From assembly GCA_015661075.1 (NCBI GenBank), contig JACVQJ010000011.1, positions 2,257 through 66,256 on the forward strand: DNA of 64,000 nt, given 5' to 3'. The notes under the pieces were generated by a model that saw only the letters and a program-made list of their open reading frames with translations, made no database searches and had not been told where the DNA came from. The stretch comes from Parachlamydiales bacterium. Its GTDB lineage: Bacteria > Chlamydiota > Chlamydiia > Chlamydiales > SM23-39. This document shows, piece after piece, positions 7,930-54,264 of this stretch; positions within the stretch are counted from its first letter, which is position 1; the number at the start of each line of letters is the position of its first letter. The translations under genes were made by a program, and so were the position numbers.

Positions 7930-8049
7930 CTATTCCCTTGCCAGCATACCAGAAATTATTCACTTATAATTCGATCATTTAATTGAGTTTGTTGCTATAA
8001 AATATTTGTCTTTCAAAAAATAAAGAAAATAGTCTATTCTCCTTGAGCG

Positions 8050-9432: not shown

Positions 9433-9469
9433 GACAAAAAATGCCCTCGGTCGAGTATAAGTACTGTTA

Positions 9470-9635
9470 GGAGCTGATCAACGATAAAGTAAACCATTTG
9501 GCTAGCGTGAAAGCTCTCTAGGGTCAACGATCGTAAGTGGGCTAGTATTAATAAAGCAATACAAGCCTACTTACGATCGTTGACCCTAGTGGCTTTGACG
9601 CAGCCAAATGGTTTACTTTATCGTTGATCAGCTCC
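9470..9635. repeat. MITE-like nested palindrome, copy A (166 bp), flanked by a TTA duplication
   Basis: Perfect 35-bp inverted repeat (9469-9503 against 9602-9636). Inner perfect 21-bp inverted repeat (9518-9538 against 9569-9589) containing CAACGATCGT. TTA is present at 9467-9469 and 9636-9638. It sits in the der-sulP spacer. Confidence 0.65.
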
Positions 9636-9648
9636 TTAAGCGGCGCCT

Positions 9649-11418: not shown

Positions 11419-11661
11419 TCAGCTCATTTACATTCTCATTAAATTTTTGGAAAACGCTGAGTTTAAAAGAACTGAGATGCCAAGACGCTGCTGTGAAACG
11501 AACGGCCTAAGAATTAGCTACTTACAAACGGTAGGCGGTGTTTTTCGAGCAAAATCTACAAAAGAGTCAGGGAACTTGGGCTAATTCTTACTAAATCTTT
11601 TTTAGAAAATCGATTTGCAGAATCCCCTCTATAGTTTGAACGTAGCAGCAATGTGTTGCGT

Positions 11662-11979
11662 TCAAGTTGTTTGGGCTTTGCTTTTTCTGGATCTTTTCAT
11701 GATCCATCGTTGGATGAATTTTCCCCGTTCTTGCCCTTTTTGCTGACGTACCAGCTCCATTTGCTGTAAAGACGTTCCCATTTGATGACAAAAAGCGTCC
11801 AACACTTCCACGATGTCCGCCATCTCTTCGGGACACGGATTTTCTAAAAACTCATCGACCTCTTCCTGGAGTTTTTTTCTTAAAAAAAAATGATATTCAG
11901 CAGGGTCCGCTTGATAAAAAGCAACATCGCATGATTCCTTGCATATCTCAGGAATGCGATCTCGGACTAATTTTTTGAT
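11662..11979 (-). CDS. MazG-like all-alpha NTP pyrophosphohydrolase (phosphoribosyl-ATP-PPase-like), with no canonical start codon
   Basis: Absent from the ORF track. My own minus-strand translation gives (I)KKLVRDRIPEICKESCDVAFYQADPAEYHFFLRKKLQEEVDEFLENPCPEEMADIVEVLDAFCHQMGTSLQQMELVRQQKGQERGKFIQRWIMK. This fits the KLVRDxIPEI ... EExADxxEV ... KxxxRGxF pattern of that family. The only candidate start is ATC at 11979, 7 nt after GAGG; an in-frame TAG lies 3 codons upstream of it. Confidence 0.5.
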   Translation of the reverse strand: MKKLVRDRIPEICKESCDVAFYQADPAEYHFFLRKKLQEEVDEFLENPCPEEMADIVEVLDAFCHQMGTSLQQMELVRQQKGQERGKFIQRWIMKRSRKSKAQTT

Positions 11980-11994
11980 AAAACACCTCTACGT

Positions 11995-12585
11995 TTATGG
12001 TTTTTTTCGCACTATGATATTCAGCCAATGGCACTGACTACGAGTCGCTTCAGTGCCTGAAACATGGATCCACTCATCAAGGATGGTAAATTCGTCGAGG
12101 AAGGGTAAAAGCGTCTCATTATCGATATAGTTAAAGGTTCTGTCGCATTCGTGAGATACTCCTTTTCCTTCTTTAAAAGACATGAAAAGAACTCCATTCG
12201 GTTTAAGAGCTCTGCATAACCTATTTATTACATCAGGTAGAGAATTTAATGAAACATGCACTAAAGATGCCAAAGCCCAGATTCCATTAAATTCCTCAAA
12301 AAAATCCATTTCTTCAAAGACCCCTTTTGTCGCGGGGAGTTTTAAGGTTTCTGTTACATACTTAACCATTTCTTCAGACGCGTCAAAACCCATTACCTTA
12401 TATCCCAAATGATAAAAAGCTAACATATCTCGGCCAGGGCCGCAGCCAGCATCCAGAATCGTTGCTGAAACCGGAAGATATTTTAAGAATCGTTCTTGCT
12501 GATCCTTCAAATTCAGATAAAAAGTCCTTTCAAAATAGGTGGAGAAGTTGTTGTTATAAAAATTGATGGTATTTAGGTCTATCAT
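11995..12585 (-). CDS. class I SAM-dependent methyltransferase
   Basis: Motif I ILDAGCGPGRD, followed by GFDASEEMV and LKPNGVLFMSF. I prefer the ATG at 12585 (MIDLNT). The TTG at 12606 lies inside the IS inverted repeat. Confidence 0.8.
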   Translation of the reverse strand: MIDLNTINFYNNNFSTYFERTFYLNLKDQQERFLKYLPVSATILDAGCGPGRDMLAFYHLGYKVMGFDASEEMVKYVTETLKLPATKGVFEEMDFFEEFNGIWALASLVHVSLNSLPDVINRLCRALKPNGVLFMSFKEGKGVSHECDRTFNYIDNETLLPFLDEFTILDEWIHVSGTEATRSQCHWLNIIVRKKP

Positions 12586-20470: not shown

Positions 20471-22392
20471 GTGCGACCGGTATGTCGCTAAACTAAAGGG
20501 TGAAAGTCCCTTACGGGCTCTAGTAAGGAGAACCGTTAGAGAAGGCAAGGGTGCCCACCGTGAGGTGGGATCTGAAGAAAGCCGTATACAAAATGCTGAC
20601 CTGACGAACAGGAAGCGCATACGAGGCAGAGATCCTAGGATAAGGAGGCCAGTGACTCCAAAGTCCGATACTTACTTGGAAGGATCAATGTAGATGCGAC
20701 AGGTTAGCAGGAAAGTGAAGCGAATTACCCGGTGAGAGCTGTATTCACGCATAATTACTACCCGACCAAAGAGGGGAACGTCATGCTAGCGGTGTCTCGG
20801 AGAGATGACGTGAACGGTACAGCAGTCAGCAGACGACATAGTAGGCATCGCAAGATGCTGAAGGTCCGAACATGAAAACGAAGGAGAGATCCAAAACCTC
20901 TATGGCAACAGAAAATCGCAGAAAAGAAGACATGTCTAAAGCAAAAACAGAAGAATCGAGGCAGAACTTCGTACCACTTCTGAATAGCGCGATGGTTGAC
21001 AAGGCGGAAATGGGGATATCTATCCTACCTAGCGGTCACGACGCCTATATCGCTACGATAGAAAGCGTAGTGGACGACTGTAATATGAAAAGAGCCGTTG
21101 CAAAAGTGAAAAGCAACAAAGGCGCTCCTGGCATAGACGGTGTTACCACCGAAGAAATCTCAGATGTCATGCTAAAGCAATGGCCTCAAATCAAACAGGC
21201 CATTCTTGACGGAAAATATTGCCCAAGCCCAGTAAGGCGGGTGGAAATACCGAAACCGGATGGGAGTGGGGTTCGACAATTGGGAATCCCAACGGTTATG
21301 GATCGGATTATCCAGCAAGCAATAAATCAAGAACTGACACCTGTATTCGATCCTATATTCTCGCAAAACAGTTACGGGTTTAGACCAAATCGAAGCGCTC
21401 ATCAGGCCGTGTTACAAGCTCAGAAATACATCCAAGAGGGATGTGAGTGGGTGGTAGATATCGACTTGGAAAAGTTTTTCGATAAAGTTAACCATGACAT
21501 GCTAATGGCGAGGGTAGCAAGACGGGTAAAGGACAAGAAAATCCTCCTTCTGATCAGGAAATTTCTGCAATCAGGGATTATGGATGATGGTCTTGTAAAA
21601 CCAACGGAAGAAGGCACTCCGCAAGGAGGGCCGCTTTCCCCTCTGCTATCCAACATCATGTTGGATGATTTTGACAGGAAGCTTAAGGAAAGAGGATTAC
21701 GATTTGCCAGATATGCGGATGACTGCAACATCTATGTAAAATCAGAGAAAGCAGGGCAGCGTGTAATGGAAAAAGTGGTGAACTATCTAACTAAAGAACT
21801 GAAACTCAAAGTTAACATGCAGAAAAGTGCAGTGGATAATCCATGGAAACGAAAGTTTCTTGGATTCACCTTCACAAGGGGAAAAGAGCCGAATCGAATT
21901 GCAGTCCACGAAAGCAGGGTCAAGCGGTTGAAAGATAAAATAAGAGGACTCACCAAGAGGATGAGAGGCGATAATCTAACGGATAGCATCCAAAAGATGC
22001 TTATGCCAATCATCAGAGGGTGGGCCAATTATTTTGGATTAGCCGAGGCTCGAAGCGTTTTCGCGAATTTGGACGGGTGGATTAGACGCAAGATGAGGGA
22101 TATCCTTTGGCGACAATGGAAGAAAGCCCGAACTCGATGCAAGCGACTAATAGCACTCGGACTGAAAGAAAACAGTGCCAAAAAGACAGCGTACAGCGGG
22201 AAAGGGCCATGGAGAATGGCCAAGACGCCAGGTATGCATAAGGCACTGTCAAACGCAGTGATTGAAGCGATGGGGTACGTTTCTATGGCAGACATAGTAC
22301 GAGCTAGGTCACAGTAATCATGAACCGCCGTATACGGTTCCGTACGTACGGTGGTGTGGAAGGGCGGGAGCGTTAGCTCCCCCCTATCCGAT
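20471..22392 (+). mobile_element. group II intron, bacterial class C-like
   Basis: 5' GTGCG at 20471, directly after a terminator hairpin. Domain V-like helix CCGCCGTATAC..GTACGTACGGTGG carries a CGC triad. A domain VI hairpin with a bulged A follows. It contains an internal RT/maturase ORF. The 3' end is approximate to within a few nt. Confidence 0.8.
20872..22317 (+). CDS. group II intron reverse transcriptase/maturase (no endonuclease domain)
   Basis: RT motifs GIPTVMDRIIQQA, SYGFRPNRSAHQA, DIDLEKFFDKVNH, GTPQGGPLSPLLSN and RYADDCNIYV. Maturase X motif RGWANYF. No HNH C-terminus. Confidence 0.9.
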   Translation: MKTKERSKTSMATENRRKEDMSKAKTEESRQNFVPLLNSAMVDKAEMGISILPSGHDAYIATIESVVDDCNMKRAVAKVKSNKGAPGIDGVTTEEISDVMLKQWPQIKQAILDGKYCPSPVRRVEIPKPDGSGVRQLGIPTVMDRIIQQAINQELTPVFDPIFSQNSYGFRPNRSAHQAVLQAQKYIQEGCEWVVDIDLEKFFDKVNHDMLMARVARRVKDKKILLLIRKFLQSGIMDDGLVKPTEEGTPQGGPLSPLLSNIMLDDFDRKLKERGLRFARYADDCNIYVKSEKAGQRVMEKVVNYLTKELKLKVNMQKSAVDNPWKRKFLGFTFTRGKEPNRIAVHESRVKRLKDKIRGLTKRMRGDNLTDSIQKMLMPIIRGWANYFGLAEARSVFANLDGWIRRKMRDILWRQWKKARTRCKRLIALGLKENSAKKTAYSGKGPWRMAKTPGMHKALSNAVIEAMGYVSMADIVRARSQ

Positions 22393-22430: not shown

Positions 22431-22835
22431 CTACTTCAAGCCGTTATGCTTGTCAGACCATGCCGGATCGTATTTGAAGATCCGGCCATCGATTTCGATC
22501 TTGCGATAGACCCATTCTTCATCGTTCTCTCGCAATAGCCGGTCGCACCCCATCAAATAGCCCTTGAGAAAGCCGTAGCGCTGCATCGCGAGCTGCATGT
22601 AGCGCGACGATGTAGGCCGGAAATGGCTGCGCGGTCCGTCGACTTGTGTGATGACGTTTTGATGAAAACGGATGATCGCATCGGCGATCTTGACACCGAT
22701 GCCCGGTTTTGATACGGGCGAATGGGTTTTGGGAGTGGCGAGATCGCTGTCTTTCCCCCAAGGCTCCTGAAAGGGCTCTTTTGCGATGATCAGCAGGGGA
22801 ATAAATATTGCTAAAATAGTGATTCTAAAAAGCAT
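22431..22835 (-). CDS. secreted YidD-like domain protein lacking the conserved cysteines
   Basis: N-terminal signal-like helix. IIRFHQNVITQVDGPRSHFRPTSSRYMQLAMQRYGFLKGYLMGCDRLLREN aligns by eye with the YidD core (YQxxISPxxGxxCRFxPTCSxY...G), but every conserved Cys is replaced. Confidence 0.5.
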   Translation of the reverse strand: MLFRITILAIFIPLLIIAKEPFQEPWGKDSDLATPKTHSPVSKPGIGVKIADAIIRFHQNVITQVDGPRSHFRPTSSRYMQLAMQRYGFLKGYLMGCDRLLRENDEEWVYRKIEIDGRIFKYDPAWSDKHNGLK

Positions 22836-23772
22836 AGCGCATCATCAGGACAGGAAATAAATTGTGTTCATTGAGCGTGCGGGCGGCGTTTTTTTCGTAG
22901 GCCCTTTCATTGTAGTATTTGGCCTCTTCGCCTGCGCCGTAAATGCCGCCGAAGTACCAGCCGGCTTCAAAGCTGGTCGTGATGATGCCGGCCGCCAAAT
23001 AGTTGTGATGGAAAAATTCATAGGCCGCGGCGATGAAAAGGCCGTTGAGCAAAAAAGCGGTCAGGGCCGATTTTTTCTGCCCCAAATAGAGATAGCCGGC
23101 ACCAGGCATGAGAGCGTTCAGGGTCTGCGCCGTTCGGACGGATTTTTTTTCCGCTTCGTATGATTGGAGCATGGGATCGAGATAGGAGGGATGAGGCAGA
23201 TCCTGATTGATTTGTTGGATCTGATCCAGATTGCCCGAGGTGAGAGCTCGTGAGACGTTCATCTTTTCAGCCGTCTCGGGAAAGTCCTTCTGGATCATCT
23301 CAAAGACGCAATCCTCTTTTTCCGTACAGTTCATCTTGTGGTAGCATTCGTAGAGAATGAGCAGCAGATCGTGGTAGGCAGGAAAGGTCTTGTCGACATG
23401 GGCGAGCGCGCTCTTGTTCACCATGTCTACCGCATCGTCATAATGCTGGCCCAGATAATAGCAGAGCAAAATGTCGTACTGGATCTCGGTTTTACGCCCG
23501 GGATCTTTGTTTCCAATCAGGATTTCGGCGCGCTTATAGGTCGATACGGCGCGGTACAGATCCAGATCTTTGGCAAAGAAAAGGGCGATGCGCATTTCCC
23601 GGCCCCAGTCGGCCATCTCTTCGTCCTCGCTGAGCGGGGCAAAAGGGGAGTGGAGGCGTGAAAAATGTAGTTCTTGAATCGGGTCGTTGATCCGCGGCTC
23701 AATCTTGTCGGAAACACGGTAGCAGCTGGCCAAAAAGAGGCAAGCGATCAAAAAAGACTTCCATTGAATCAT
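22825..23772 (-). CDS. TPR-like lipoprotein with C-terminal membrane helices
   Basis: Lipobox LFLASC at the N-terminus. The central region is helical and repeat-like. The C-terminus GAGYLYLGQKKSALTAFLLNGLFIAAAYEFF..GGIYGAG is hydrophobic. Its start overlaps the sctC stop by 1 nt (TGATG). Confidence 0.55.
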   Translation of the reverse strand: MIQWKSFLIACLFLASCYRVSDKIEPRINDPIQELHFSRLHSPFAPLSEDEEMADWGREMRIALFFAKDLDLYRAVSTYKRAEILIGNKDPGRKTEIQYDILLCYYLGQHYDDAVDMVNKSALAHVDKTFPAYHDLLLILYECYHKMNCTEKEDCVFEMIQKDFPETAEKMNVSRALTSGNLDQIQQINQDLPHPSYLDPMLQSYEAEKKSVRTAQTLNALMPGAGYLYLGQKKSALTAFLLNGLFIAAAYEFFHHNYLAAGIITTSFEAGWYFGGIYGAGEEAKYYNERAYEKNAARTLNEHNLFPVLMMRYAF

Positions 23773-26700
23773 CAGTCATCTTCGGGCGATTTGATATATT
23801 CCATCGCTTCATCAAAATTATGCTCGAGAGCCGGAGTGCCCGCCTGATTGCGGAAGAATTCTTCCTGGTCGGAGCTGAGTTTCTTCATATCTTCCAGTGA
23901 ATTAATGATGGTGGGCCGCAGGAAGATGACGACATTGTGGCCGACGCTGCTGTCGTTGTTGGTCGAAAAAGCAGACCCGATGATGGGTATGCCGCCGAGG
24001 CACGGAATACCTGTTTTCACGCGTCGGTTTGAGTTGTTGACCATCCCGCTCAAAATCAAAAAGTTTTTGTTCGGAACATGAACCGTTGTATTCATTGTGG
24101 TTCGGCTCGTGGTGATCCCTTGTGCCTGACCCGTCCCGAAAGTGATCGTTGATCCGGTCGAATCTGTGGTCTGCTGCGAGTTGTCCAGGCTGATATCGAG
24201 CGTAATGATATCCGAGTTGCCGAGAACCGGGGTGATCGATAGGTTCATGCCGATATCGCGGTATTCGAGGTTGGCCGTCGTCAGGGTGTTCGATGTCTGG
24301 TTGGAGACGAACGATCCGGCAAACGGGACGTTAGACCCCGAGAAAATTGTCGCTGTCTTACTGTCCTGGGCGATGATCTTGGGCGTCATGACGATGGTCG
24401 TTTCAGTGTCTTGCTGCAGTGCGTTTAGAAGCGATCCGAGAGAAATAAAGGACTGGCCGTTGTGCTTGATGATGTCCCCAATCACGCCCAGATTGAAGTC
24501 GGGAGCGAAGGGAGTATCGGTCGGCACCGGCGTTCGGGTCGCTGTAATCGCCTGCAGATTGGATTGAAAACTACCCGCTGACGGATAAGGTGAAACCGCA
24601 GAGGGTTGGAAATTGTTAAAACTGCCGGACACCTTGTCTTTGTATTTGACCTTGCCGCCCCATTCGAGGCCGAACGTGAGCGCGTTGGTCAGGGAGGTGT
24701 CGATGACGAGCACTTCGATGAAGACCTGCTTGAGCGGAATATCAAGATTTTTGATCAGCTCCTTGAGGCGGGTCAGCGTTTCCTGATCGCCCGAGCAGAG
24801 CAGAGAGTTGGTCACTTCCAGCCATTGAATCGAATTGATCGAATTGAGCAGGCCCTGGTTCACGGGTGCATTCGTCAGGATCAGGTCTTTGGCGATCTGC
24901 CGCAGCGCTCCCTGGATTTCATCGCCTTTATGGAACTCGAGCTTGTAGACCAAAAAGCTGGTATTATCGATCGCCTGGATCGTCGGTTCGTTTTTTGCGC
25001 CTTCGGGGAGATTGGCGGGGATGTCGAAGTCTCTGAGTATCTGTTTGATGCGATCGAGTGATTTGGCGTCGCCCGTAAAGACCAGCGTTTGGGTTTTATC
25101 GTTGTATTTCATCGTCTGCAAGGTGATGAACAGGCCCGGATCGTTGAGTCCGCTCACCTGTAAATTCTCGCCGAAGTCGCGCAGCGTGTTTTCGAGATCG
25201 AGGCCTGTAAGAGATTGGGGTTTGTAGACGAAGAATTCGGTGGGGCCTGCACTCGTATCGATTTTGATTGGCGCAGGAGCTGCCAGGCTCGAGACGTCGA
25301 ATTTATCGACGAGCGCTTGCACTTTTGCGAGGGACTCTTCAGAGCCGGTAAACATCAAAGAGTTGGTCTCTTTGACAAATTTCAGACTGCTGAGCGTTGT
25401 TAAAAATTCCGTATCGGTCGAGCCGGTTTTTTTTAAATCCTGGGCGATCGTTTTTAGGGAAGCGGTGATTTGCGGACCGCTGGCGCTTTTTAGTTTGTAG
25501 AGCCAGAATGTCGTTTTGCCCACTTGGATGGGGGCTTGCGGGGCGGCAAAGTCGATTTCTTTGATGAGGAGCTGGATTTTAGAGATCGAATCCGGAGTGC
25601 CGGTAAATACAAACGTCTTGGTAGTATCGACGTATTTCATCGACGAGATGGTCGCGAGCAGATTTGGGTCGGACAGGTCGGCTTTTTGCAGACTCGATCC
25701 GATGTCCTTGAGTGATTTTTCGATTTTTGCCGGTGCGACGTGGAGCGGCTTGTACATGAAGAAGGTGCTGTTTTCTAGCCCCATCGTGCCGGGAGAGTCG
25801 TATTTGGCGATCATTGCTTTGGCTTCTTCGATGGCGGCGCTGTCACCGGTCAAAAGAAGCGAGTTGGTCTCCTTGACATAGCGCATATTTTCGATGACCT
25901 TGACGATCGAAGAGTCTTTCATGCCCGTCGCTAACATATTCTTGAGCATGTTCTCCAGATCTTCTTCGACTCTCTCGCCATCCGGATTTTGCAGCTTGTA
26001 GATGAAGTAGCCGGATTTGGATGTTTTTTGATCGGGAATATCGAATGACTGCACCAGATCTTTGATCCGGTCCAGGCTGCTTTGCGCGCCGGAAAACATA
26101 TACGAATGGGACGGCTCGATCCATTTCATGGAATGGATGGCGTCGATGAGATCGGAGTCGTTGGATTTGTTGAGATGATCCGCCAGCTGGCTGAGATAGC
26201 TCTCTGTACTTTCGCGGGAAGCATAGTTCAGTTTAGCCAGGTAAAAGCCTTTTTCCGAACCGGGCTTGGGGATCGATGTCGTCATGTCGATCGTTGCGAT
26301 CAGATCATCGATTTTTTTCAACGAAACAGGATCCCCCGTGAAGAGCAAAGTGTTCGTGTCTTTAACCCACTTGATGCTCGCAAGAGCGTGCAGCAGAGCC
26401 GGATCGACCAGGCTGGTCTTTAGGCTGTCAGAAGTTTCCTTCAAAGACCGGACAATCAGCTCGCCCTTGATATGCTTGGGTTTATAGGCTAAAAACTGGG
26501 TGCTCGGAGGAACCGATTGCTGGCCAACGCCGGCGTCGAATTGCGGAAGGAACTCCTGCAGTCTTTTGAGCGCTTCGTCCGTACCGACGAACATCATCGA
26601 GTTCGTCTCTTTGATATACTTAAGGGAATAGATCGCATTGACAATCCCCTCTTCGGGAAGGCCTGAATGTTCGAGGCTCTTGGCGAAGGATTTCAGGGAG

Positions 26701-28118
26701 GATTCCATCTGGTCGTAGCTGGCCGATTGCAGTTTATAGACGATGAAACCGGATTTGGGCGGCAGCTTTGGCCCCTTCGTAGATGGCGTATCGATGGTCG
26801 CGAGCAGATCCTTGATCTTGGAAAAATTGACTGAGTCGCCGGTGTAGAGAATTGTATGGGTGAGGGGATTGGCTTTTTGCGAGCGGATCGTAGCGATGAG
26901 CGTTTCGTCGGCGCTTTTCGACTTGCTGAGGTTGTCTGCGACCTCCTGCATGGATTTTTGGATTTCTTCCATGCTGCGGTTAACGGGCTTGTAGACGAAA
27001 AATGAAGCTTTGCCCTCATTCGGGAGTCCGCCGATATCGAGGGAAGTGATGAATTCCCTGATTTTGACGTTCGATTCGGGAGAGCCGACGAACATCAGCG
27101 AATTGGTTTCCTGGATCCATTTGGCGCTATCGATCGTTTCGATAAGATCGCTTTCCATGACCCCGTTTTCTTGGAGGTTGGTCGAGATGTCCTTTAAAGA
27201 TTTGAGAATTTCGTGGCCGGATCGATGTTCGAGTTTGACGACAAAAATATTTTCCGACCGCATCTTCCGCTCATTTAATACCGATCTTTTCGGCGGCGTA
27301 TCGAGGCTGGTCAGTACGGCGACGGCTTTTTCATTGAGTTCGGGCGTCGATACGATGAAAATCGCGTTGGCCAACGATTGGGGGACTAAAATAAACGGGT
27401 TGCCCTGCGCAATCGGGTTCATGATCTGGGCAGCCAGCTCGATCAGATATTCGGGTTTGTTAAATTTCGTTTCAAAATTTTTGATTTCGAGCGATGTGTG
27501 GGGCGAGTCGAGGTTTTCGATCAGGGCGGCGATTTTTTCGACGACCATCGTCGCATCAGTCAGAATCAATTGGCGCGTATCGCGCGAAACTTCGATGAGG
27601 GCCTCATCCGAGATCATTGGGCGGACGATCGCCGCCACGGAATCGACATTCGCGTTCTTTAATCGAAATACGCGCGTGACGATCGGCGTATTCGCTGCCG
27701 CTTTTTCGTCTCCGAAAACGAGTGTGGCGGGCTGGCGGACGGTGCCGCTCTTGTGGATGACGAGGTTATTTCCCTGCTCGAGCAGCATGAGTCCGTGGAT
27801 GCGCAGCATCTGGATTAGGGTCGCCATCACATTTTCCGACGTAATCGGCGCATCTGATACGACGGTTACGGTGAAAGGTAGATCGCTTTCGGTAAAAATA
27901 AAATTCGTGTTGCAGATTTTGCTCGCAAATTTGATGTATTCAACGATCGAGACGGTGTTGTAATTGATCGTGTAGCCGTCTTTCGCGCTCAATTCAGCCG
28001 CATGAGGTTTTGCCGCGTCATCGGCAAAAAGCCTCAATGGGGATAGTGAAACGGTTCCAATGATGATCAATGGAATCAAGAAGGATTTAGACAACCAATT
28101 TGTGTGTTCGTTCATCAT
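23772..28118 (-). CDS. sctC: T3SS outer-membrane secretin SctC (CdsC) with an expanded N-domain array
   Basis: Signal peptide, then an N0-like domain, then many ring-building-motif repeats. The secretin C-domain follows: VFIEVLVIDTS..., IVMTPKIIAQDS, GIPCLGGIPIIGSAF, VIFLRPTII. Total length 1448 aa. Confidence 0.9.
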   Translation of the reverse strand: MMNEHTNWLSKSFLIPLIIIGTVSLSPLRLFADDAAKPHAAELSAKDGYTINYNTVSIVEYIKFASKICNTNFIFTESDLPFTVTVVSDAPITSENVMATLIQMLRIHGLMLLEQGNNLVIHKSGTVRQPATLVFGDEKAAANTPIVTRVFRLKNANVDSVAAIVRPMISDEALIEVSRDTRQLILTDATMVVEKIAALIENLDSPHTSLEIKNFETKFNKPEYLIELAAQIMNPIAQGNPFILVPQSLANAIFIVSTPELNEKAVAVLTSLDTPPKRSVLNERKMRSENIFVVKLEHRSGHEILKSLKDISTNLQENGVMESDLIETIDSAKWIQETNSLMFVGSPESNVKIREFITSLDIGGLPNEGKASFFVYKPVNRSMEEIQKSMQEVADNLSKSKSADETLIATIRSQKANPLTHTILYTGDSVNFSKIKDLLATIDTPSTKGPKLPPKSGFIVYKLQSASYDQMESSLKSFAKSLEHSGLPEEGIVNAIYSLKYIKETNSMMFVGTDEALKRLQEFLPQFDAGVGQQSVPPSTQFLAYKPKHIKGELIVRSLKETSDSLKTSLVDPALLHALASIKWVKDTNTLLFTGDPVSLKKIDDLIATIDMTTSIPKPGSEKGFYLAKLNYASRESTESYLSQLADHLNKSNDSDLIDAIHSMKWIEPSHSYMFSGAQSSLDRIKDLVQSFDIPDQKTSKSGYFIYKLQNPDGERVEEDLENMLKNMLATGMKDSSIVKVIENMRYVKETNSLLLTGDSAAIEEAKAMIAKYDSPGTMGLENSTFFMYKPLHVAPAKIEKSLKDIGSSLQKADLSDPNLLATISSMKYVDTTKTFVFTGTPDSISKIQLLIKEIDFAAPQAPIQVGKTTFWLYKLKSASGPQITASLKTIAQDLKKTGSTDTEFLTTLSSLKFVKETNSLMFTGSEESLAKVQALVDKFDVSSLAAPAPIKIDTSAGPTEFFVYKPQSLTGLDLENTLRDFGENLQVSGLNDPGLFITLQTMKYNDKTQTLVFTGDAKSLDRIKQILRDFDIPANLPEGAKNEPTIQAIDNTSFLVYKLEFHKGDEIQGALRQIAKDLILTNAPVNQGLLNSINSIQWLEVTNSLLCSGDQETLTRLKELIKNLDIPLKQVFIEVLVIDTSLTNALTFGLEWGGKVKYKDKVSGSFNNFQPSAVSPYPSAGSFQSNLQAITATRTPVPTDTPFAPDFNLGVIGDIIKHNGQSFISLGSLLNALQQDTETTIVMTPKIIAQDSKTATIFSGSNVPFAGSFVSNQTSNTLTTANLEYRDIGMNLSITPVLGNSDIITLDISLDNSQQTTDSTGSTITFGTGQAQGITTSRTTMNTTVHVPNKNFLILSGMVNNSNRRVKTGIPCLGGIPIIGSAFSTNNDSSVGHNVVIFLRPTIINSLEDMKKLSSDQEEFFRNQAGTPALEHNFDEAMEYIKSPEDD

Positions 28119-28427: not shown

Positions 28428-29552
28428 TCAGGCGGTTTCGATCACACGGATGCCGAGCGCTTCACCGAGATAGACGAGTTCCCCGCGGCCGATTTTTTGA
28501 CCGTTCACAGTTAATGAGACTTCCTGATCGGGATGGATCGGCAGTTCTAAAAAATTGCCTGGGGACAGTTTCATCAATTGATCCACGGACATGCGCAATC
28601 GCGCCAGTTCGACAGTCACGAGCAGAGGAAGTTCCTTGACGGCCATCGCGCGCCCTTCTTCTGCAGATGCAGTTTCTTCGGTATTTTTTTGCGGCGCAGC
28701 GTCGCGCTTTTCCATAGTTTCCTCATAGAATAAGGCATAATCGAGCAACTTGATCTTGTTTTCTTTCACGCTGATGTGAAACAGCGGCGTTGATCCCAGC
28801 GATAGAGTCGCAGCCCCAACGCGAAGGCGAGGATCGTAGCCGCCCCTTTCGAGCAGGATGAAGTCGCCCTTTTCCAGCTTGTTCCACTCTTTGGTCGTTA
28901 ATCGGCAATTCCCGGTACAGATGCTGAGGGGCACTTCGATGCTCGGGGCGAGCGGCGACAAAGAAAACAGCTCCCGCATCGATGAAAAGTGGCGCTGCCA
29001 GGAGGTCAGCAAGTGGGCAGGCAAAACGAGGCGGCCCCAGCAAGAGCCATGTTCAAAGGACAGTTTAATATCGATGCAATAGGCATTCTCGATGCTCTCT
29101 TCGCTCTCTTCGTTGATTTTCAATGAAAAAGTAGTGATTGGCTCGATGGTTTGCAGGGCAGCTAAGGCCTCAAGAGCCAAAAAGCGGTAAAATCCCTCTT
29201 GCAGGATTTCCGAGTTGATGGTGCGGGTGCGGCTTTTGCCGTTCATCAGCCAGGAGGTCATGCGGGCGACATCTTCGCGCCCCATCATCCAGATGGCATT
29301 ACCGGATAGCGGGGAGATGGAGACGCTCAGACTCATGACATCCGAACCCAGACTCTCTTTAATTTTTTTCTCTTCGCGCCAGGTTCCTTCCCCCGTTTCA
29401 ATCGATAACGGTGCGCCGAATTGCGCTTTGATCGCGGAAGAGATGCGGCTGATATCCAATCTTGGTGCATTTCCATAGAGAGGAATTTTATCGAGCCGCC
29501 GCAAAGCGTCGTCGACTTTGCGCGCCCAAGCCAATGGAAGCCCATTCGTCAT
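28428..29552 (-). CDS. sctQ: T3SS cytoplasmic-ring / sorting platform protein SctQ (CdsQ)
   Basis: C-terminal SpoA/FliN-type domain LPLLVTVELARLRMSVDQLMKLSPGNFLELPIHPDQEVSLTVNGQKIGRGELVYLGEALGIRVIE. There is a 4-nt overlap with the upstream sctP-like gene. Confidence 0.85.
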   Translation of the reverse strand: MTNGLPLAWARKVDDALRRLDKIPLYGNAPRLDISRISSAIKAQFGAPLSIETGEGTWREEKKIKESLGSDVMSLSVSISPLSGNAIWMMGREDVARMTSWLMNGKSRTRTINSEILQEGFYRFLALEALAALQTIEPITTFSLKINEESEESIENAYCIDIKLSFEHGSCWGRLVLPAHLLTSWQRHFSSMRELFSLSPLAPSIEVPLSICTGNCRLTTKEWNKLEKGDFILLERGGYDPRLRVGAATLSLGSTPLFHISVKENKIKLLDYALFYEETMEKRDAAPQKNTEETASAEEGRAMAVKELPLLVTVELARLRMSVDQLMKLSPGNFLELPIHPDQEVSLTVNGQKIGRGELVYLGEALGIRVIETA

Positions 29553-30793
29553 TTTTCCCTCTCATTCATATCTTCTTTGCCGCCGCCCTCTTTTTTTCGC
29601 CGGATCAACGGACGTCCAGGCGATAGCTCTGTTTCAAGCCGGCCGATGCGAAATTTGATGCGATGATCTTCATAAGCAGCCGTAAAGGCCGACGTCAAAC
29701 TACTGATATTTTGATTGAATGCCTTTACTGCTTCCGGCGTTCCTGTGAGGCGGATGTTAAAAGAATCGGGAGCGCTGGAATATTTTGCAATGGTAATTGT
29801 TGTGTTGTAGAAGACGGAATTTTGAAACTTTGGGGAATTCAGCACTACTTCTGTTAAGGAAACGCCCGTTTTGGGCATCGACATGAAAACGACCGTACCT
29901 ACCATTTGATAAAATAGCGCGGCTGTTTGGGGGGTCAGGAACGGGGATGCCGATGTCTGGGCGATCTGCGCGACCTGTTGCGCCGCGGGCGGCAGCGGAT
30001 CCGGCGGACTGACGGGTGTTTGAGATTCAAAAGAAGCTTGTTTCTTGTGGCTATCTTTTTCATCCCCTTTATCTTTATGAGCTTCAGTAAAACCGCGCGA
30101 TGGGGCTGCTATTTTTTCCTTTTCTTGCCAGGCCGTTTTTTCTTTTTGGCTGATATTCGGCGCCGGGCGCTCTTCTTTTTTCACAGGAACGGTCGGCGTT
30201 TCTCTTTCTACCCAAAAGGCCTTTATCGGTTTTTCCCCTTTCATTAAGGGCGGAGGCGCGATGGGTAAGGAGGGCTGCGGGAGACCTTTTTTCTCCGCTG
30301 TTTTTTTTCCAGAAGATTCTTTTGACTGGATCGGCGACGCCCATGGGGTTCGGGGTTTTTCCTGACCAAAATTCTCGTGCGGCGAAGGGGCTTTGATCTC
30401 AACTTTTGGTTTCTTAAGGGTGGATGGACCGAAGATGCCCCCAAATTCTTTAGCTGTTTTTTTTTCAGGGACAGCTGATTGCTGCTTTGCCTGTTGATGG
30501 GTCAATGGCTGCGGCTGTTCGTTGAATTGAGTCGGGGGGATGGGCTGGTCAGGTAGATCGTTATTTTCCCAGAACTCTTCTGACTCGGGAAGGTTTTCGT
30601 CAATCTCGCCCTCTTCTTCCGGGGGGGTGGCGTATGGGCGTTTTTGCTGTTGGTCGAGTTCTACCTCGCTCACCTTTTCCACTTCCTCGACCGGGCGCAT
30701 GGCTTTTTGAAATTTCCCCGCATCAGCGCCTTGTGTTCCGCGCGCTCCACGCACAGGTTCGGGGGAAGTAGGACCGCCAACAGGGTTGGTCAT
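29549..30793 (-). CDS. sctP: proline-rich T3SS protein in the CdsP/SctP (needle-length regulator) position
   Basis: Its position directly upstream of sctQ matches chlamydial CT671. The N-terminal two thirds are low-complexity P/E/K-rich. The C-terminal globular part (VSLTEVVLNSPKF...FNIRLTGTPEAVKAF) is reminiscent of a T3S4/FliK-like domain. Confidence 0.55.
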   Translation of the reverse strand: MTNPVGGPTSPEPVRGARGTQGADAGKFQKAMRPVEEVEKVSEVELDQQQKRPYATPPEEEGEIDENLPESEEFWENNDLPDQPIPPTQFNEQPQPLTHQQAKQQSAVPEKKTAKEFGGIFGPSTLKKPKVEIKAPSPHENFGQEKPRTPWASPIQSKESSGKKTAEKKGLPQPSLPIAPPPLMKGEKPIKAFWVERETPTVPVKKEERPAPNISQKEKTAWQEKEKIAAPSRGFTEAHKDKGDEKDSHKKQASFESQTPVSPPDPLPPAAQQVAQIAQTSASPFLTPQTAALFYQMVGTVVFMSMPKTGVSLTEVVLNSPKFQNSVFYNTTITIAKYSSAPDSFNIRLTGTPEAVKAFNQNISSLTSAFTAAYEDHRIKFRIGRLETELSPGRPLIRRKKEGGGKEDMNEREK

Positions 30794-31094: not shown

Positions 31095-31409
31095 TTAAGT
31101 GCTTTTTTGAATGAGCTTGGGTCGATAGATTCCCTTGTCGACTATTTCCAGCAGTCGTAGGGCTGCATGACTCGGAACTCGTTCTCCCGATTCCCAGGAT
31201 TGAACGGTTTTAATGCTGACATTCAAAACTTTTGCAAAAACGCCCTGAGAATACGGCCCCTTTTTTCGGATATTTTTAATGTGGTTGGCTGAGTATGAAA
31301 TAGGGGGTTCTGGGATTTCAATAATCTCGGATTGAAGCGTAATCTTACCTTGTTTATGAGCAAGTATTTCTTCGAGGCCTCCTTTTAATTCTTCAAAAAA
31401 TCTGCTCAT
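31095..31409 (-). CDS. XRE-type HTH antitoxin (YiaG/NadS-like)
   Basis: 104 aa. The C-terminal HTH is SQGVFAKVLNVSIKTVQSWESGERVPSHAALRLLEIV. Its ATG overlaps the inferred original toxin stop (ATGA). Confidence 0.75.
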   Translation of the reverse strand: MSRFFEELKGGLEEILAHKQGKITLQSEIIEIPEPPISYSANHIKNIRKKGPYSQGVFAKVLNVSIKTVQSWESGERVPSHAALRLLEIVDKGIYRPKLIQKST

Positions 31410-31864
31410 TTTTTCCCCTTAATTGCATTGGTTATCTTTTTCAAGACAGCTTTTTCTTCCGCGCTTAGGGATCGTTCAAGAATAAAGTTTAGTGTTGTCG
31501 AGGAGAAAAACGGTTTAGATTTTGAGAATTTTTCCGCAGCTGAGAGTCTTGTTTCTCTCTGTTGAACGATCCCTTAAATTTTCTTGTTCGTTTTTTTGAA
31601 AAACCTGAATCAGGTAAATAGTTTGCCTAAATACATAGTAAAAATAACAAACCCGAAAGCCTCCGCTCTTTCCCCTCGATGCAGATTTTAATCTTATTTT
31701 TCTAACGCCGCCAGTTCCTGTCAGGACAGTCCCCTTTTCTGGATTTTCAGCCAGCTCTCTTTTAAGGTCGTTGTAATCGTCCTGCAAAAGACTATGCCGA
31801 TTCAACAAAGCGGCAATTTTTTTGAAAACGCCGTGGTTTCGGTTATTTGAATCTTTGTATTCAT
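31406..31864 (-). pseudogene. RelE/ParE-superfamily toxin, inactivated by a homopolymer frameshift and a MITE insertion
   Basis: MNTKIQITETTAFSKK (frame a) continues as LLQDDYNDLKRELAENPEKGTVLTGTGGVRKIRLKSASRGKSGGFRVCYFYY..VFQKNEQENL (frame b, after the A7 run at 31817-31823). A 106-bp insertion then separates it from SAEEKAVLKKITNAIKGKK*. Confidence 0.65.
31468..31573. repeat. MITE-like element, copy C (106 bp), inserted in the toxin gene and flanked by TTA
   Basis: 12-bp perfect terminal inverted repeat GGGATCGTTCAA (31468-31479) against TTGAACGATCCC (31562-31573). TTA at 31465-31467 and 31574-31576. Removing it restores the toxin reading frame. Confidence 0.7.
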
Positions 31865-31965: not shown

Positions 31966-32478
31966 TCATTCTTTATCCCGTTTTTCAGCGTCCCGTTTGC
32001 GGAGTAGATGCGTCGATGAACCTTGTTCGTCGTGCTGTTCCGCTTCCTTTTGCTCAGTCCAGTAGTGAACCTCTTTTTTCCATTCCGCTTTGTGCATTTC
32101 AAGTTTTTCGAGATCTTTTTTGCGCTGAAAGAGATCTTCCGTTGCCTGATCAACGAGTTTTTGGGCCAAATCGACCTTCGCTTTCTGGTCGACGACCTTT
32201 TTTTGCTTTTCCCGCAGCTTTTCATCCACGATCTTTAAATAGATCTTCATCTGCTGAATCTTGTCTGTCGTCGTTCCTTTGTCCAACGCATCGCGCAGCT
32301 GCTGGAGTTTGTCCGTCTTGTGCTGCAGGACGGAGTCGCGCTCCTGGGTCACTTCGTAGAGTTTTTCGTACGCTTTTTCCAAAATCACTTTTTTTTCCTC
32401 GAGCACTTTGACCGCCTGATCGAAGCGGTTTTTCTTGATCTGCATCAATTGCTCGAGCGGATAATTCAGCGGATCCAT
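31966..32478 (-). CDS. sctO: T3SS stalk protein SctO (CdsO, CT670-like coiled coil)
   Basis: 170-aa all-coiled-coil protein. The N-terminus YPLEQLMQIKKNRFDQAVKVLEEKK and the DKGTTTDKIQQMKIYLK segment match my recollection of chlamydial CT670. Its position lies between sctN and sctP. Confidence 0.7.
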   Translation of the reverse strand: MDPLNYPLEQLMQIKKNRFDQAVKVLEEKKVILEKAYEKLYEVTQERDSVLQHKTDKLQQLRDALDKGTTTDKIQQMKIYLKIVDEKLREKQKKVVDQKAKVDLAQKLVDQATEDLFQRKKDLEKLEMHKAEWKKEVHYWTEQKEAEQHDEQGSSTHLLRKRDAEKRDKE

Positions 32479-33437: not shown

Positions 33438-34754
33438 CTAAACAAACAGGGCTTTGAGCATGCGCAGCGTATCTTCGAAGCTTGACTTTTCGTCGATTTG
33501 CTGCTTGAGGAAGCGATTGACTTTATCGATGTATTTGAGGGCGAAGTCGGCGTTTTTGTCCGAGCCAGGCTTATATTCGCCAATGCGGATGAGCAGCTCG
33601 TTTTTCTTGTAGTTCGCCAGCACTTCGCGCACCTTGCCGATCAGATCGAGATGCGGCCGGTCCACGATCTGCGGCAAGACGCGGCTGATCGAGGCCAGAA
33701 CGTCGATGGCGGGATAGTGGTATTGGCGCGCCAGATCCGCTGACAGGATAATATGGCCGTCCAGAATGGAACGGACTTCGTCGGCAATCGGCTCGTTGAG
33801 ATCGTCGCCGGCGACCAGGATCGTATAAAAGGCCGTGATGGAGCCCTTTTCGCTGTTGCCGGAACGCTCCAGCAGGCGCGGCAATATCGCGAAAACAGAC
33901 GGCGTATAGCCGGCGCGGGCGGGCGGCTCGCCGGCAGCTAAGCCGATTTCTCTGAGCGCTCTTGCAAAGCGCGTGATGGAGTCCATCATCAATATGACTG
34001 ATTTGCCCTGCGCGCGAAAATATTCGGCAATCGCTGTTCCGACATAAGCGGCGTTGATGCGCATCTGGGCGGCCTGATCGGAGGTCGAGATGATGATGAC
34101 CGAGCGCTTCATCCCTTCCGTCCCGAGGTCGTTGATCAAAAATTCGCGCACTTCTCTACCGCGCTCGCCGATGAGCGAGATCACATTGATGTCGGCTTGC
34201 GCGTTGCGGGCGATCATGCCCATCAGAGTCGATTTGCCGACGCCGGCCGCGGAGAAAATGCCGACGCGCTGGCCTTTGCCGCACGTGAGGACGCCATCGA
34301 TGCTCCGCACGCCGACCGAAATGGGCTTTTGGATCAGCTGGCGCTTCAGGGGATCGGGCGGGGTATTGATGACGGGAAAGCTCTCTTCGAGAACGAGCGG
34401 TCCTTTGGTGTCTTCGTCGAGCGGCTGGCCCATGCCGTTCAAAATGCGGCCGAGCAGATTGGGCCCCACTTTGATGTGCAGGGGCATGCGCATGGGGATC
34501 ACTTCCGAGGACGGGCCAATGCCTTTCATGTCTCCCACGGGGGACAGAAGTACTTCATCTTTTGTGAATCCGACGACCTCGGCAATCAATGGTTCGCCGT
34601 CCCGCTTGATGAGGCAGATCTCGCCCATTTTCACTTGCGGAACGACGGCGCGGATCAACATGCCGATCACTTCGGTGATGCGTCCGTGAACGGTGGTGAG
34701 TTCCACATCCTCCAGATGACTCATCAGGTTATCGAAGGAAGGGCCTTGTTCCAT
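33438..34754 (-). CDS. sctN: T3SS ATPase SctN (CdsN)
   Basis: Walker A GIFSAAGVGKSTL, Walker B VILMMDSITRFA, and the F1/T3SS ATPase signature throughout. Confidence 0.95.
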   Translation of the reverse strand: MEQGPSFDNLMSHLEDVELTTVHGRITEVIGMLIRAVVPQVKMGEICLIKRDGEPLIAEVVGFTKDEVLLSPVGDMKGIGPSSEVIPMRMPLHIKVGPNLLGRILNGMGQPLDEDTKGPLVLEESFPVINTPPDPLKRQLIQKPISVGVRSIDGVLTCGKGQRVGIFSAAGVGKSTLMGMIARNAQADINVISLIGERGREVREFLINDLGTEGMKRSVIIISTSDQAAQMRINAAYVGTAIAEYFRAQGKSVILMMDSITRFARALREIGLAAGEPPARAGYTPSVFAILPRLLERSGNSEKGSITAFYTILVAGDDLNEPIADEVRSILDGHIILSADLARQYHYPAIDVLASISRVLPQIVDRPHLDLIGKVREVLANYKKNELLIRIGEYKPGSDKNADFALKYIDKVNRFLKQQIDEKSSFEDTLRMLKALFV

Positions 34755-34761
34755 TCATTTT

Positions 34762-35394
34762 TTATAGTTGGGTGTTCAGGATTTGTTTGAGTGAATCGAC
34801 GACTTTACCGAGCAAGGACGAAGAATATTCAATCTCTTGCTGGGCCTGCGACAGCTTGACCTGAACCAGCAAAAAATCGCCGGCATTCATCTGAATGCCC
34901 TTTTTGGAAATATTCTCGATCTGTTGCTGGGCCGCTGCCAGCTGGTTTTCGCCGTCGGTCACGTAACCGAGAAAGCGCTCGATCGGCTTCGCTCCGGATT
35001 GCGATGGCATCGGCGGCGTCTCCACGCCCAGTTTCGCATTCGCTGCGCGCAGGTGGGTCGTGGCGTCGGACAGCTTGTTGCGCAGCAGATGCTGCTGCGA
35101 GCGCCTGAACTGCAGGTCTTTCGTGCCCAGCTGATTCCTCACATTGGCCAGGCTGTCTTGCGATATGCCGATCTGGGAGATCAGGCTATCGAGAGACGGT
35201 CCCGCCGTCTGCACGGCGTATTGGGCTCCCGGGATCGCCGAGGGAGCCTGCGCCTGAAAACCCTTGGGCGGAGCTTGCTGGGCGGCCGTTGAAAAGCTCT
35301 GGAAATCCGCCCCCGGTGCCTGGGGCGTGGTCGTCCCTGGCTTGATGGGCTGATTGCCAAAGATCGGATCAGACTTGTCAGACGGTATCGTCAT
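34762..35394 (-). CDS. CT668-position protein with a needle/rod-like C-terminal domain (candidate inner rod SctI)
   Basis: The N-terminus is P/Q/A-rich and likely disordered. The C-terminus NAGDFLLVQVKLSQAQQEIEYSSSLLGKVVDSLKQIL parallels NPGQFILVQFQMSQVTQVGESISNMIGQVNSVINNAV of the adjacent needle protein. Confidence 0.5.
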   Translation of the reverse strand: MTIPSDKSDPIFGNQPIKPGTTTPQAPGADFQSFSTAAQQAPPKGFQAQAPSAIPGAQYAVQTAGPSLDSLISQIGISQDSLANVRNQLGTKDLQFRRSQQHLLRNKLSDATTHLRAANAKLGVETPPMPSQSGAKPIERFLGYVTDGENQLAAAQQQIENISKKGIQMNAGDFLLVQVKLSQAQQEIEYSSSLLGKVVDSLKQILNTQL

Positions 35395-35418
35395 CGTTTT
35401 TCCGTTGCACTACTCGCG

Positions 35419-35850
35419 TTACTTCGCTTTTTTTTGGCCCTGGACAGGCGTCGGCGTCTTTTTCAAAAACTTCTCGGCGAAGTCGATCGCGGTATTGGAG
35501 AGGTTTTTGAGCATGGGGTCATGCGACTTCAGCGTTTGATGCAGGATTTTTTCGCCTTTGTCCAATGACGCCGGGTTCAAGCTCATGCAAATGCCGAGCA
35601 GTGTCTTGGCCATTTCATTTTTTGGCTCTTTGGCCAGCACATCTTCGAACGCTTTGCAGGCTTGCTTGAGCTCGAGTTTATGCAAATGCAAATAGCCCAT
35701 GCCGACCGTGGGTAAAGTGTTGTCTGGATTGAGCATTGCAGCTGCTTTGAACAGCTTGATCGCAGAATCTTCGTCCGCCTGGTTGACGGCAATGAATCCG
35801 CATTCGAGAAAGAGAATCCAGTCCTCTTTGTAATCTTTCCAATTTGCCAT
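35419..35850 (-). CDS. TPR-type T3SS chaperone (CdsG/YscG-like position)
   Basis: 143 aa with TPR-like helical pairs (AIKLFKAAAMLNPDN, ACKAFEDVLAKEPKN). It lies immediately downstream of the needle gene, as in chlamydial CT667. Confidence 0.55.
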   Translation of the reverse strand: MANWKDYKEDWILFLECGFIAVNQADEDSAIKLFKAAAMLNPDNTLPTVGMGYLHLHKLELKQACKAFEDVLAKEPKNEMAKTLLGICMSLNPASLDKGEKILHQTLKSHDPMLKNLSNTAIDFAEKFLKKTPTPVQGQKKAK

Positions 35851-35867
35851 AGTTCCTCAACTTGCCT

Positions 35868-36113
35868 TTATCGTGATTGTTGGTTTTTTACTGCGTTGTT
35901 GATCACCGAATTGACCTGCCCGATCATGTTCGAGATCGATTCGCCGACCTGCGTCACCTGGCTCATCTGAAATTGCACGAGGATGAACTGGCCCGGATTG
36001 GCCGAACTCATCTTGCTCGCGAGCGAGCGCACCTGTTGTAACAGCTGATCTTGCAACTTTTTGTAATTAGAGATGAGCGAATTAAACGATAATGAAGTGT
36101 CGTTTGTTTTCAT
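35868..36113 (-). CDS. sctF: T3SS needle filament protein SctF (CdsF)
   Basis: 81-aa helix-turn-helix protein with an NPG turn and a conserved C-terminal helix. Its position matches chlamydial CT666. Confidence 0.7.
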   Translation of the reverse strand: MKTNDTSLSFNSLISNYKKLQDQLLQQVRSLASKMSSANPGQFILVQFQMSQVTQVGESISNMIGQVNSVINNAVKNQQSR

Positions 36114-36122
36114 TGATAGCCC

Positions 36123-36359
36123 CTATTTCGCTGCTTTTTTGATGGCTTTTTGAAGAGCGGTGTAGCCGTGCAGTAGAATTCCCAACTGATCGAAATCCTT
36201 ATCGCTCGCACCAACTCTTAGCGCTTGTTTAATTTCCTGGATCCTGTTTTCCGCTTTCAACAGCAGCTCTTTGCTGCGGCCGGGGCGCTCCTTCAATTCG
36301 ACTTCGAGATCGAACATGAATTTTCCAGGGCCTTTCTTGCCTTTTTCTAGTCCGTACAT
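36123..36359 (-). CDS. small helical protein in the CdsE/YscE (needle co-chaperone) position
   Basis: 78 aa, helical, located between sctD and sctF as for CT665. The assignment rests on position only. Confidence 0.45.
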   Translation of the reverse strand: MYGLEKGKKGPGKFMFDLEVELKERPGRSKELLLKAENRIQEIKQALRVGASDKDFDQLGILLHGYTALQKAIKKAAK

Positions 36360-36375
36360 TCTGACTCCTTTCCCC

Positions 36376-54192: not shown

Positions 54193-54264
54193 AGCGGGTG
54201 ATGAGATTCGAACTCATGACCCTCACGTTGGCAACGTGATGCTCTACCACTGAGCCACACCCGC
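54193..54264 (-). tRNA. tRNA-Gly (anticodon GCC)
   Basis: The reverse complement folds as a cloverleaf: GCGGGTG acceptor stem, GCTCAGTGGTAGAGC D-arm, anticodon arm TCACG-TTGCCAA-CGTGA, and T-arm ATGAG-TTCGAAT-CTCAT. No CCA is encoded. Confidence 0.92.

Follow-up and report, generated by a model that had tools for sequence, protein, structure and literature searches.

The sctC locus

The 64,000-nucleotide (nt) stretch of DNA analysed here (hereafter the window), part of contig JACVQJ010000011.1 of a Parachlamydiales bacterium, carries a chlamydial type III secretion system (T3SS) gene cluster that includes sctC, the gene of a giant secretin. sctC is an intact open reading frame (ORF) of 1448 amino acids (aa; 23772..28118, minus strand, as are all features below unless stated), identified by the ORF itself and by Pfam, NCBIfam and PDB-sequence matches. 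An earlier reading of the same DNA (the original prediction) had taken its product for an injectisome secretin with about ten tandem N-domain-like modules. Here, we describe the domain organization of this protein, its relatives and gene neighbourhood, and a relationship between module number and the length of the protein encoded at the needle-ruler position of the cluster.

The sctC product begins with a predicted signal-peptide-like hydrophobic segment, read by eye from the translation (about aa 1–33; 28020..28118). The N0 domain (aa 48–125; 27744..27977) is supported by Pfam type_II_gspD_N0 (35.6 bits against a cut-off of 27, aa 51–119) and by alignment to XcpQ N0, and the N1 and N2 domains (aa 149–277; 27288..27674) by phmmer alignment to the XcpQ/GspD N0–N1–N2 crystal-structure chains 4e9j and 5ngi. 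XcpQ N0–N1–N2 is alignable to aa 48–277 as a whole, in agreement with the predicted N0-like domain and two short ring-building domains. The secretin core (aa 1132–1448; 23775..24725) starts at the motif VFIEVLVIDTS, ends in a conserved C-terminal tail and matches Pfam Secretin (PF00263; 115.8 bits against a cut-off of 27.5, aa 1233–1405) as well as PDB sequences of GspD, PilQ, pIV and InvG. Between N2 and the core lies the ten-module array (M1–M10; aa 291–1131, 27248..24726), which the predicted interval of 24580–27250 covers in full but overruns by about 145 nt into the C-domain. Pfam Secretin_N matches nine stretches of the protein (210.7 bits, E 2.4e-63). GspD N3 and core can be aligned to M10 and the C-domain (aa 1100–1421); because M10 aligns with GspD N3, the repeated unit is an N3-type domain. 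On these alignments, the layout is N0–N1–N2–[M1…M9]–M10(=N3)–core, with 13 N-type domains (N0–N2 plus the ten modules).

The closest solved structures by sequence are type II secretion system (T2SS) secretins (XcpQ 5wln, GspD 5wq7/5wq8 and others). Among NCBIfam models, the GspD equivalog TIGR02517 scores highest, its 348.9 bits narrowly missing the cut-off of 351.35, and the SctC equivalog TIGR02516 reaches 102 bits against a cut-off of 238.45. Judged by these scores, the sctC product is GspD-like, not SctC-like. Such a profile is to be expected: Abby and Rocha (PMC3459982) showed that the chlamydial T3SS acquired its secretin in an independent recruitment, and that this secretin groups with those of T2SS and with phage pIV.

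The gene neighbourhood consists of sct genes, not gsp genes. sctQ (FliMN_C; 28428..29552), assigned by its domain match and by synteny in relatives, lies immediately upstream of sctC. Upstream of it follow a gene for a Pro-rich 414-aa protein (29549..30793), which occupies the position of the needle-ruler gene sctP between sctO and sctQ, then sctO (YscO-like; 31966..32478), sctN (the T3SS ATPase; 33438..34754) and sctD/cdsD (625 aa, with two FHA domains, CdsD_PD1, PD2 and CdsD_C; 36376..38253). The order in the direction of transcription is sctD, a TPR chaperone-like gene, sctN, sctO, a RelE/HTH pair, the 414-aa gene, sctQ and sctC, and the sct gene order is kept in at least 38 relatives’ loci. 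Thus, as its place in a chlamydial type III secretion cluster indicates, the sctC product is an injectisome secretin, as had been proposed. The RelE/HTH_3 pair (31095–31808), which comprises an HTH_3 antitoxin-like gene (31095–31409) and a RelE-like toxin gene (31515–31808), is inserted inside the cluster between sctO and the SctP-position gene.

The module array and its relatives

The ten modules are 77–93 aa long, follow one another directly, and all ten predicted opening motifs could be located at their starts, from aa 291 to aa 1055. They are M1 (aa 291–372; 27003..27248), a YKL-type module with a one-to-one orthologue in nearly all relatives; M2 (aa 373–457; 26748..27002), YKP-type, the most divergent module, which lacks ETNSL; M3 (aa 458–541; 26496..26747), YKL-type; M4 (aa 542–624; 26247..26495), YKP-type; M5 (aa 625–703; 26010..26246), a copy-number hot spot in relatives; M6 (aa 704–785; 25764..26009), YKL-type, and M7 (aa 786–870; 25509..25763), YKP-type, both conserved one-to-one; M8 (aa 871–961; 25236..25508), YKL-type; M9 (aa 962–1054; 24957..25235), YKP-type, which is followed by the longest linker; and M10 (aa 1055–1131; 24726..24956), which adjoins the core and is the most conserved module. 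Pairwise identity among them is 18–44%, and neither Tandem Repeats Finder nor a direct-repeat search found a DNA-level repeat in the array. Together, these two observations indicate that the array is ancient, and neither a recent amplification nor an assembly artefact.

Several of the sequence signatures originally described hold in a modified form. Every module closes with an aspartate, but the residue before it is L, I, F or Y rather than only I or F. The ETNSL-type strand, said to be present in each module, is near-exact in about half of them, and M2, M5, M7 and M9 carry variants. The alternation of YKP and YKL openings is real, with the YKP proline at positions 2, 4, 7 and 9 conserved across orthologues, but it is not strict (LP LP L LP LP L).

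We modelled the array (aa 285–1131) with AlphaFold2 from a 70-sequence alignment, and M8 separately. The array model (mean predicted local distance difference test (pLDDT) score 82.9) shows the same β1-α1-α1′-β2-β3-α2 unit ten times, with low confidence confined to the linkers (3–7 residues for M1–M8, 11 before M9 and 17 before M10). Its predicted template modelling (pTM) score is 0.32, and the relative arrangement of the modules is therefore not predicted. M8 alone was modelled with a pLDDT of 87.4 and a pTM of 0.73. In Foldseek searches of the PDB, both models matched the N-domains of ExeD, EpsD, GspD, XcpQ (N0–N2), PilQ, HofQ and phage pIV best, with probabilities of 0.99–1.0; KH domains appear lower in the list. 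For the single module, TMq was 0.45–0.69 over 72–76 columns, with a root-mean-square deviation mostly of 2.0–4.1 Å (5.4 Å for pIV). On the evidence of these models, every module is a bona fide secretin N-domain, and the structure-prediction check proposed with the original prediction comes out in its favour.

A search of 5.8 billion proteins returned 330 homologues of the sctC product at E<1e-10. The best 120 are 1255–1856 aa long and contain 8–15 modules when counted with a hidden Markov model (HMM) built from the ten window modules; those with a named source come from Chlamydiota metagenome-assembled genomes (MAGs) or from mislabelled ‘Verrucomicrobia’ MAGs. The nearest relative, a ten-module protein of 1445 aa, shares 72% identity with the window protein. 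With each GTDB species represented by a single genome, 200 species representatives encode a relative, and we examined the loci of the best 80, among which the closest protein is 60% identical; complete genes there have 6–14 modules, with a mode of 9–10. All 80 are from uncultured organisms (MAGs), and no locus of cultured Parachlamydia, Simkania, Waddlia or Chlamydia is among these best 80 of 200. A third search, with HMMER against 1.84 billion representatives at 50% identity and M10 plus the core (aa 1055–1448) as the query, extended the family to proteins of 2368 aa; by the module HMM, its full-length members have 6–23 modules, and matches below about E 1e-90 are ordinary one-module secretins. 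A protein from an Anoxychlamydiales MAG has seven modules, and an 876-aa protein from a Waddliaceae MAG has one and is probably a T2SS paralogue.

Such an array is therefore a trait of the lineage, a large chlamydial clade of uncultured members, within which its copy number varies: relatives carry 6–23 modules with a mode of 8–10, ten is thus near the mode, and the closest relative also has ten. At 1448 aa the protein is, as predicted, far longer than the model secretins (CdsC 921 aa, MxiD 566 aa and YscC 607 aa; PMC4682100), but within its own lineage, in which hundreds of Chlamydiota proteins share the architecture, it is not the exception it had appeared to be. The comparison of orthologues proposed with the original prediction thus points to a lineage trait as far as the array itself goes, but not to a module count that is the same throughout. 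Prior descriptions of multi-module chlamydial secretins were not found in the literature searched, a limited collection. Current database names are ‘secretin N-terminal domain-containing protein’, GspD/PulD and SctC, and giant secretins are routinely auto-named GspD/PulD although their gene context shows SctC.

To follow the evolution of the array, we matched the modules of 23 relatives one by one to the window module that each resembles most. M1 and M6–M10 are one-to-one almost everywhere, and the shortest form, in the 1135-aa protein P0142, reads 1-6-7-8-9-10. The middle of the array is variable: M2–M5 can be lost, M5-like copies range from none to about ten (P0011, P0121), and most changes in copy number are gains or losses of single M5-like modules. 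One protein, P0003, shows a clear two-module duplication (6-7-6-7). In hhalign comparisons of ten position-specific profiles, similarity is highest for M3–M4 and M4–M5, with M10 and M2 as outliers; these profile–profile scores do not yield separate YKL and YKP clades. These patterns lend no clear support to the suggestion that the array grew by amplification of a two-module unit, the P0003 duplication being the one clear event of this kind, and a two-module origin is unproven. The YKP/YKL alternation may instead reflect alternating ring–ring interfaces.

Co-varying and accessory genes

The SctP-position protein combines a conserved C-terminal region of about 120 aa with a variable spacer rich in Pro, Lys and Glu. 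Its gene position between sctO and sctQ, variable spacer and conserved C-terminal domain are those of an SctP/T3S4 protein. In injectisomes, needle length scales linearly with SctP size (PMC4682100, citing Journet 2003).

Across loci with complete genes, the more modules a secretin has, the longer the SctP-position protein tends to be (Spearman 0.60, p=7e-5, n=38), with a slope of about 24 aa per module. The correlation persists in phylogenetically independent contrasts on a tree built from the secretin core (r=0.61–0.68, p<=5e-5, 37 contrasts). The lengths of two other cluster proteins, used as negative controls, show no such relationship (SctD, rho 0.03, n=19; SctQ, rho −0.18, n=38, contrast r 0.07). 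Three giant secretins outside the original sample, with 15, 17 and 21 modules, accompany SctP-position proteins of 611, 616 and 670 aa, for which the regression predicts 554, 602 and 699 aa, respectively; each falls within one residual standard deviation (SD; 62 aa), and their inclusion raises the correlation to 0.68 (p=9e-7, n=41). Seven other giants lie outside this ruler test, four because upstream context is missing (L082, L083, L086 and L087) and three because sctC is detached from the cluster (L084, L089 and L090). In these three loci, the giant secretin gene stands away from the sctN–sctQ cluster, with enolase, AAA_14 or tRNA-synthetase genes upstream.

Two of the giant loci encode a second, short paralogue of the SctP C-terminal domain (223–245 aa), located between the long SctP-like gene and sctQ (L081, 6346–7017; L085, 6363–7100). 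The lineages with this paralogue have secretins of 17–21 modules and a pkn5-like kinase gene between sctQ and sctC. The kinase gene is found at this site in L081, L084, L085 and L086, and is absent from the window.

Directly downstream of sctC, with a start that overlaps the sctC stop codon, lies a gene for a putative 315-aa lipoprotein (22825..23772) that has a lipobox-like N terminus (…FLASC), hydrophobic C-terminal segments and no Pfam match. A homologue occupies the same place in nearly all 80 loci and in L081–L085 and L088, and the detached secretins of L084, L089 and L090 retain it. The lipoprotein is a candidate pilotin or secretin accessory, which possibly binds the conserved C-terminal tail of SctC. 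A YidD-like gene (PF01809, 41 bits; 22431–22835) always follows the lipoprotein gene, forming a conserved sctC–lipoprotein–yidD trio across the clade. Just beyond it is a group II intron on the plus strand (20554–22317), with Rfam domains D1–D4 at 20554–20866 and a reverse transcriptase/maturase ORF (RVT_1, GIIM) at 20872–22317. Elsewhere in the window, G+C content is raised at 8000–12000 and 34000–38000 (0.51–0.55, compared with 0.40–0.46 in the flanks), two regions in which Rfam finds no rRNA; the sole other RNA match in the window is a tRNA (54193–54264, minus strand).

Role of the array and comparison with known systems

We consider it reasonably likely that the sctC product is an SctC/CdsC orthologue of GspD-derived type in which an N3-type domain was serially duplicated, and whose additional rings stack into a longer tube and basal body. 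The ancestor would have been a T2SS GspD-type secretin with the order N0–N1–N2–N3–core, and serial duplication of its N3-type ring domain would have yielded N0–N1–N2–[M1…M10]–core. If each module forms one ring in a 12–15-mer, a stack of all 13 N-type domains would make a periplasmic tube several times the length of that in model secretins; the short linkers, 3–7 residues for most modules, fit such close axial stacking. The resulting basal body would be longer and could allow the injectisome to span a wide or variable periplasm. If each module does add a ring to the basal body, the needle and rod that traverse it must also be longer, which would fit a ruler-position protein that gains about 24 residues per module. 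Journet is said to have found, in 2003, a needle length of ~1.9 Å per ruler residue; on that value, 24 residues would correspond to about 4.6 nm, the same order as one ring. Scaled from ~4 nm per ring in Thermus PilQ, 13 N-type domains would give a tube of roughly 40–55 nm. The length of the machine would then be set by module number, a trait open to evolution.

The link to the SctP-position protein, with SctD and SctQ lengths showing no comparable trend, argues for a tube of stacked rings and a correspondingly longer basal body, and to that extent the long periplasmic conduit originally envisaged gains indirect support; the part of that idea that each module forms a ring derives from homology. 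Several points weigh against it. The pTM score of the array monomer is silent on inter-module geometry. Eighteen to 23 stacked modules would measure about 80–100 nm, which is hard to accept for cells as small as those of chlamydiae, so that tight ring pairs or partial side-by-side packing are possible. The 414-aa protein is probably SctP, an assignment that rests on gene position and the conserved C-terminal domain: a Pfam search with the window protein gave no Flg_hook match, the match is weak and confined to three of 15 orthologues (best E 0.052), and a profile of the family has no PDB match. The scatter is large, with SctP-position proteins of ten-module loci ranging from 246 to 527 aa, and two giant lineages encode the short second paralogue. 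With these points in mind, we advance only tentatively the wider idea that copy number is a heritable, rapidly evolving length dial that co-evolves with the needle ruler and sets basal bodies from ~30 to >80 nm. If it is true, these would be the longest known trans-periplasmic conduits, with the C. trachomatis basal body at the short end of the series.

Another explanation, which is unlikely but would be compatible with a stacked tube, is that the flexibly linked rings or beads form an extensible bellows or tether, whose elasticity, rather than any fixed length, would keep an injectisome connected when host contact or a switch of developmental form alters the distance between outer and inner membranes. 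The linkers are the sole low-confidence segments of the model and the last two are 11–17 residues long; the C. trachomatis basal body contracts from 34 to 29 nm as the periplasmic domains of CdsC and CdsD compact (PMC4682100), and in Thermus PilQ the N0–N3 domains shift by ~30 Å and inter-ring distances vary (PMC4463427, PMC5745081). Most linkers, however, offer little slack, and co-variation with the ruler-position protein is easier to explain by a fixed added length. It is rather improbable that the extra domains instead serve as a scaffold that binds proteins or peptidoglycan (periplasmic partners, the downstream lipoprotein or neighbouring injectisomes), or form concentric or paired layers that thicken the tube. 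Secretin N-domains are KH-like interaction modules, in keeping with the KH domains among the lower Foldseek matches; the conserved, position-specific YKP and YKL openings could mark two types of interface, as in the tight N0N1 and N2N3 ring pairs of PilQ (PMC5745081); and a linear stack is difficult to reconcile with arrays of 18–23 modules. Yet the analysis found no partner, SctD length does not change with module number, a pure binding role does not predict the correlation with the ruler-position protein, and N1–N3 line the channel in all characterised secretins among the PDB matches.

That the protein belongs to a T2SS or type IV pilus rather than to the injectisome, or that its repeat region is an artefact of assembly, is highly improbable. 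The GspD-first ranking, the low SctC equivalog score and the many database copies auto-named GspD/PulD would suit a T2SS secretin, but a T2SS/pIV ancestry of chlamydial T3SS secretins is known (PMC3459982), and the window shares the order sctD…sctN–sctO–sctP–sctQ–sctC with dozens of independent assemblies. No assembler would collapse or expand repeats that diverge this far and show no repetition at the DNA level, and the same architecture is found in >300 proteins.

Returning to the stacked-ring tube, the array most probably extends the basal body. Secretins are usually treated as carrying two to four periplasmic N-domains; here, a whole injectisome clade has 9–26 N-type domains, in a copy number that varies between species and tracks a putative needle ruler. 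The clade offers a natural experiment on the matching of basal-body length, needle length and periplasm width, on the stacking of ring-building domains and on the diversification of the ancient chlamydial T3SS. The co-variation with the ruler-position protein is a new result; of all outcomes of this analysis, it is the most interesting and lends itself most directly to testing.

C. trachomatis CdsC (SctC, CT674), given in the original prediction as roughly 920 aa, has 921 aa and belongs to an elongated, compressible basal body whose whole length is 34 nm; its CdsP has 283 aa (PMC4682100). Like the window protein, CdsC is an injectisome secretin of T2SS/phage-pIV ancestry, encoded in the neighbourhood cdsN–cdsO–cdsP–cdsQ–[pkn5]–cdsC (PMC4682100, PMC3459982), and it exceeds YscC, MxiD and InvG in size (PMC4682100). 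According to published descriptions, however, CdsC has a unique 250-residue hydrophilic N-terminal domain in addition to classical N-domains, whereas the window protein has no such domain, its N0 starting at aa 48 after the signal-peptide-like segment; its extra mass lies between N2 and the core, in the ten modules of N3 type. The window cluster also differs from that of Chlamydia in having no pkn5 between sctQ and sctC.

The T2SS secretins GspD, XcpQ, EpsD and ExeD (5wln, 5wq7, 5wq8, 6i1x, 6i1y and 4e9j) are the best matches in sequence and structure and share the N0–N1–N2–N3–core order, but they have a single N3 and are encoded in T2SS operons, in contrast to the window protein, which scores just under the GspD equivalog cut-off and is encoded in a T3SS cluster. 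PilQ of Thermus thermophilus (757 aa) has six stacked rings, N0–N5, is ~35 nm long and crosses an unusually wide periplasm of ~70 nm (PMC5745081, PMC4463427). It resembles the window protein in its repeated β-α-β-β-α N-domains, and has flexible inter-ring joints and tight ring pairs of its own (PMC5745081, PMC4463427). It differs in serving a type IV pilus/DNA-uptake machine of an unrelated lineage in which no ruler protein is involved, and in having six N-domains as against 13 in the window protein and up to 26 in its relatives. Thermus PilQ is thus the nearest functional analogue of the giant chlamydial secretins, and CdsC the nearest homologue with in-situ data.

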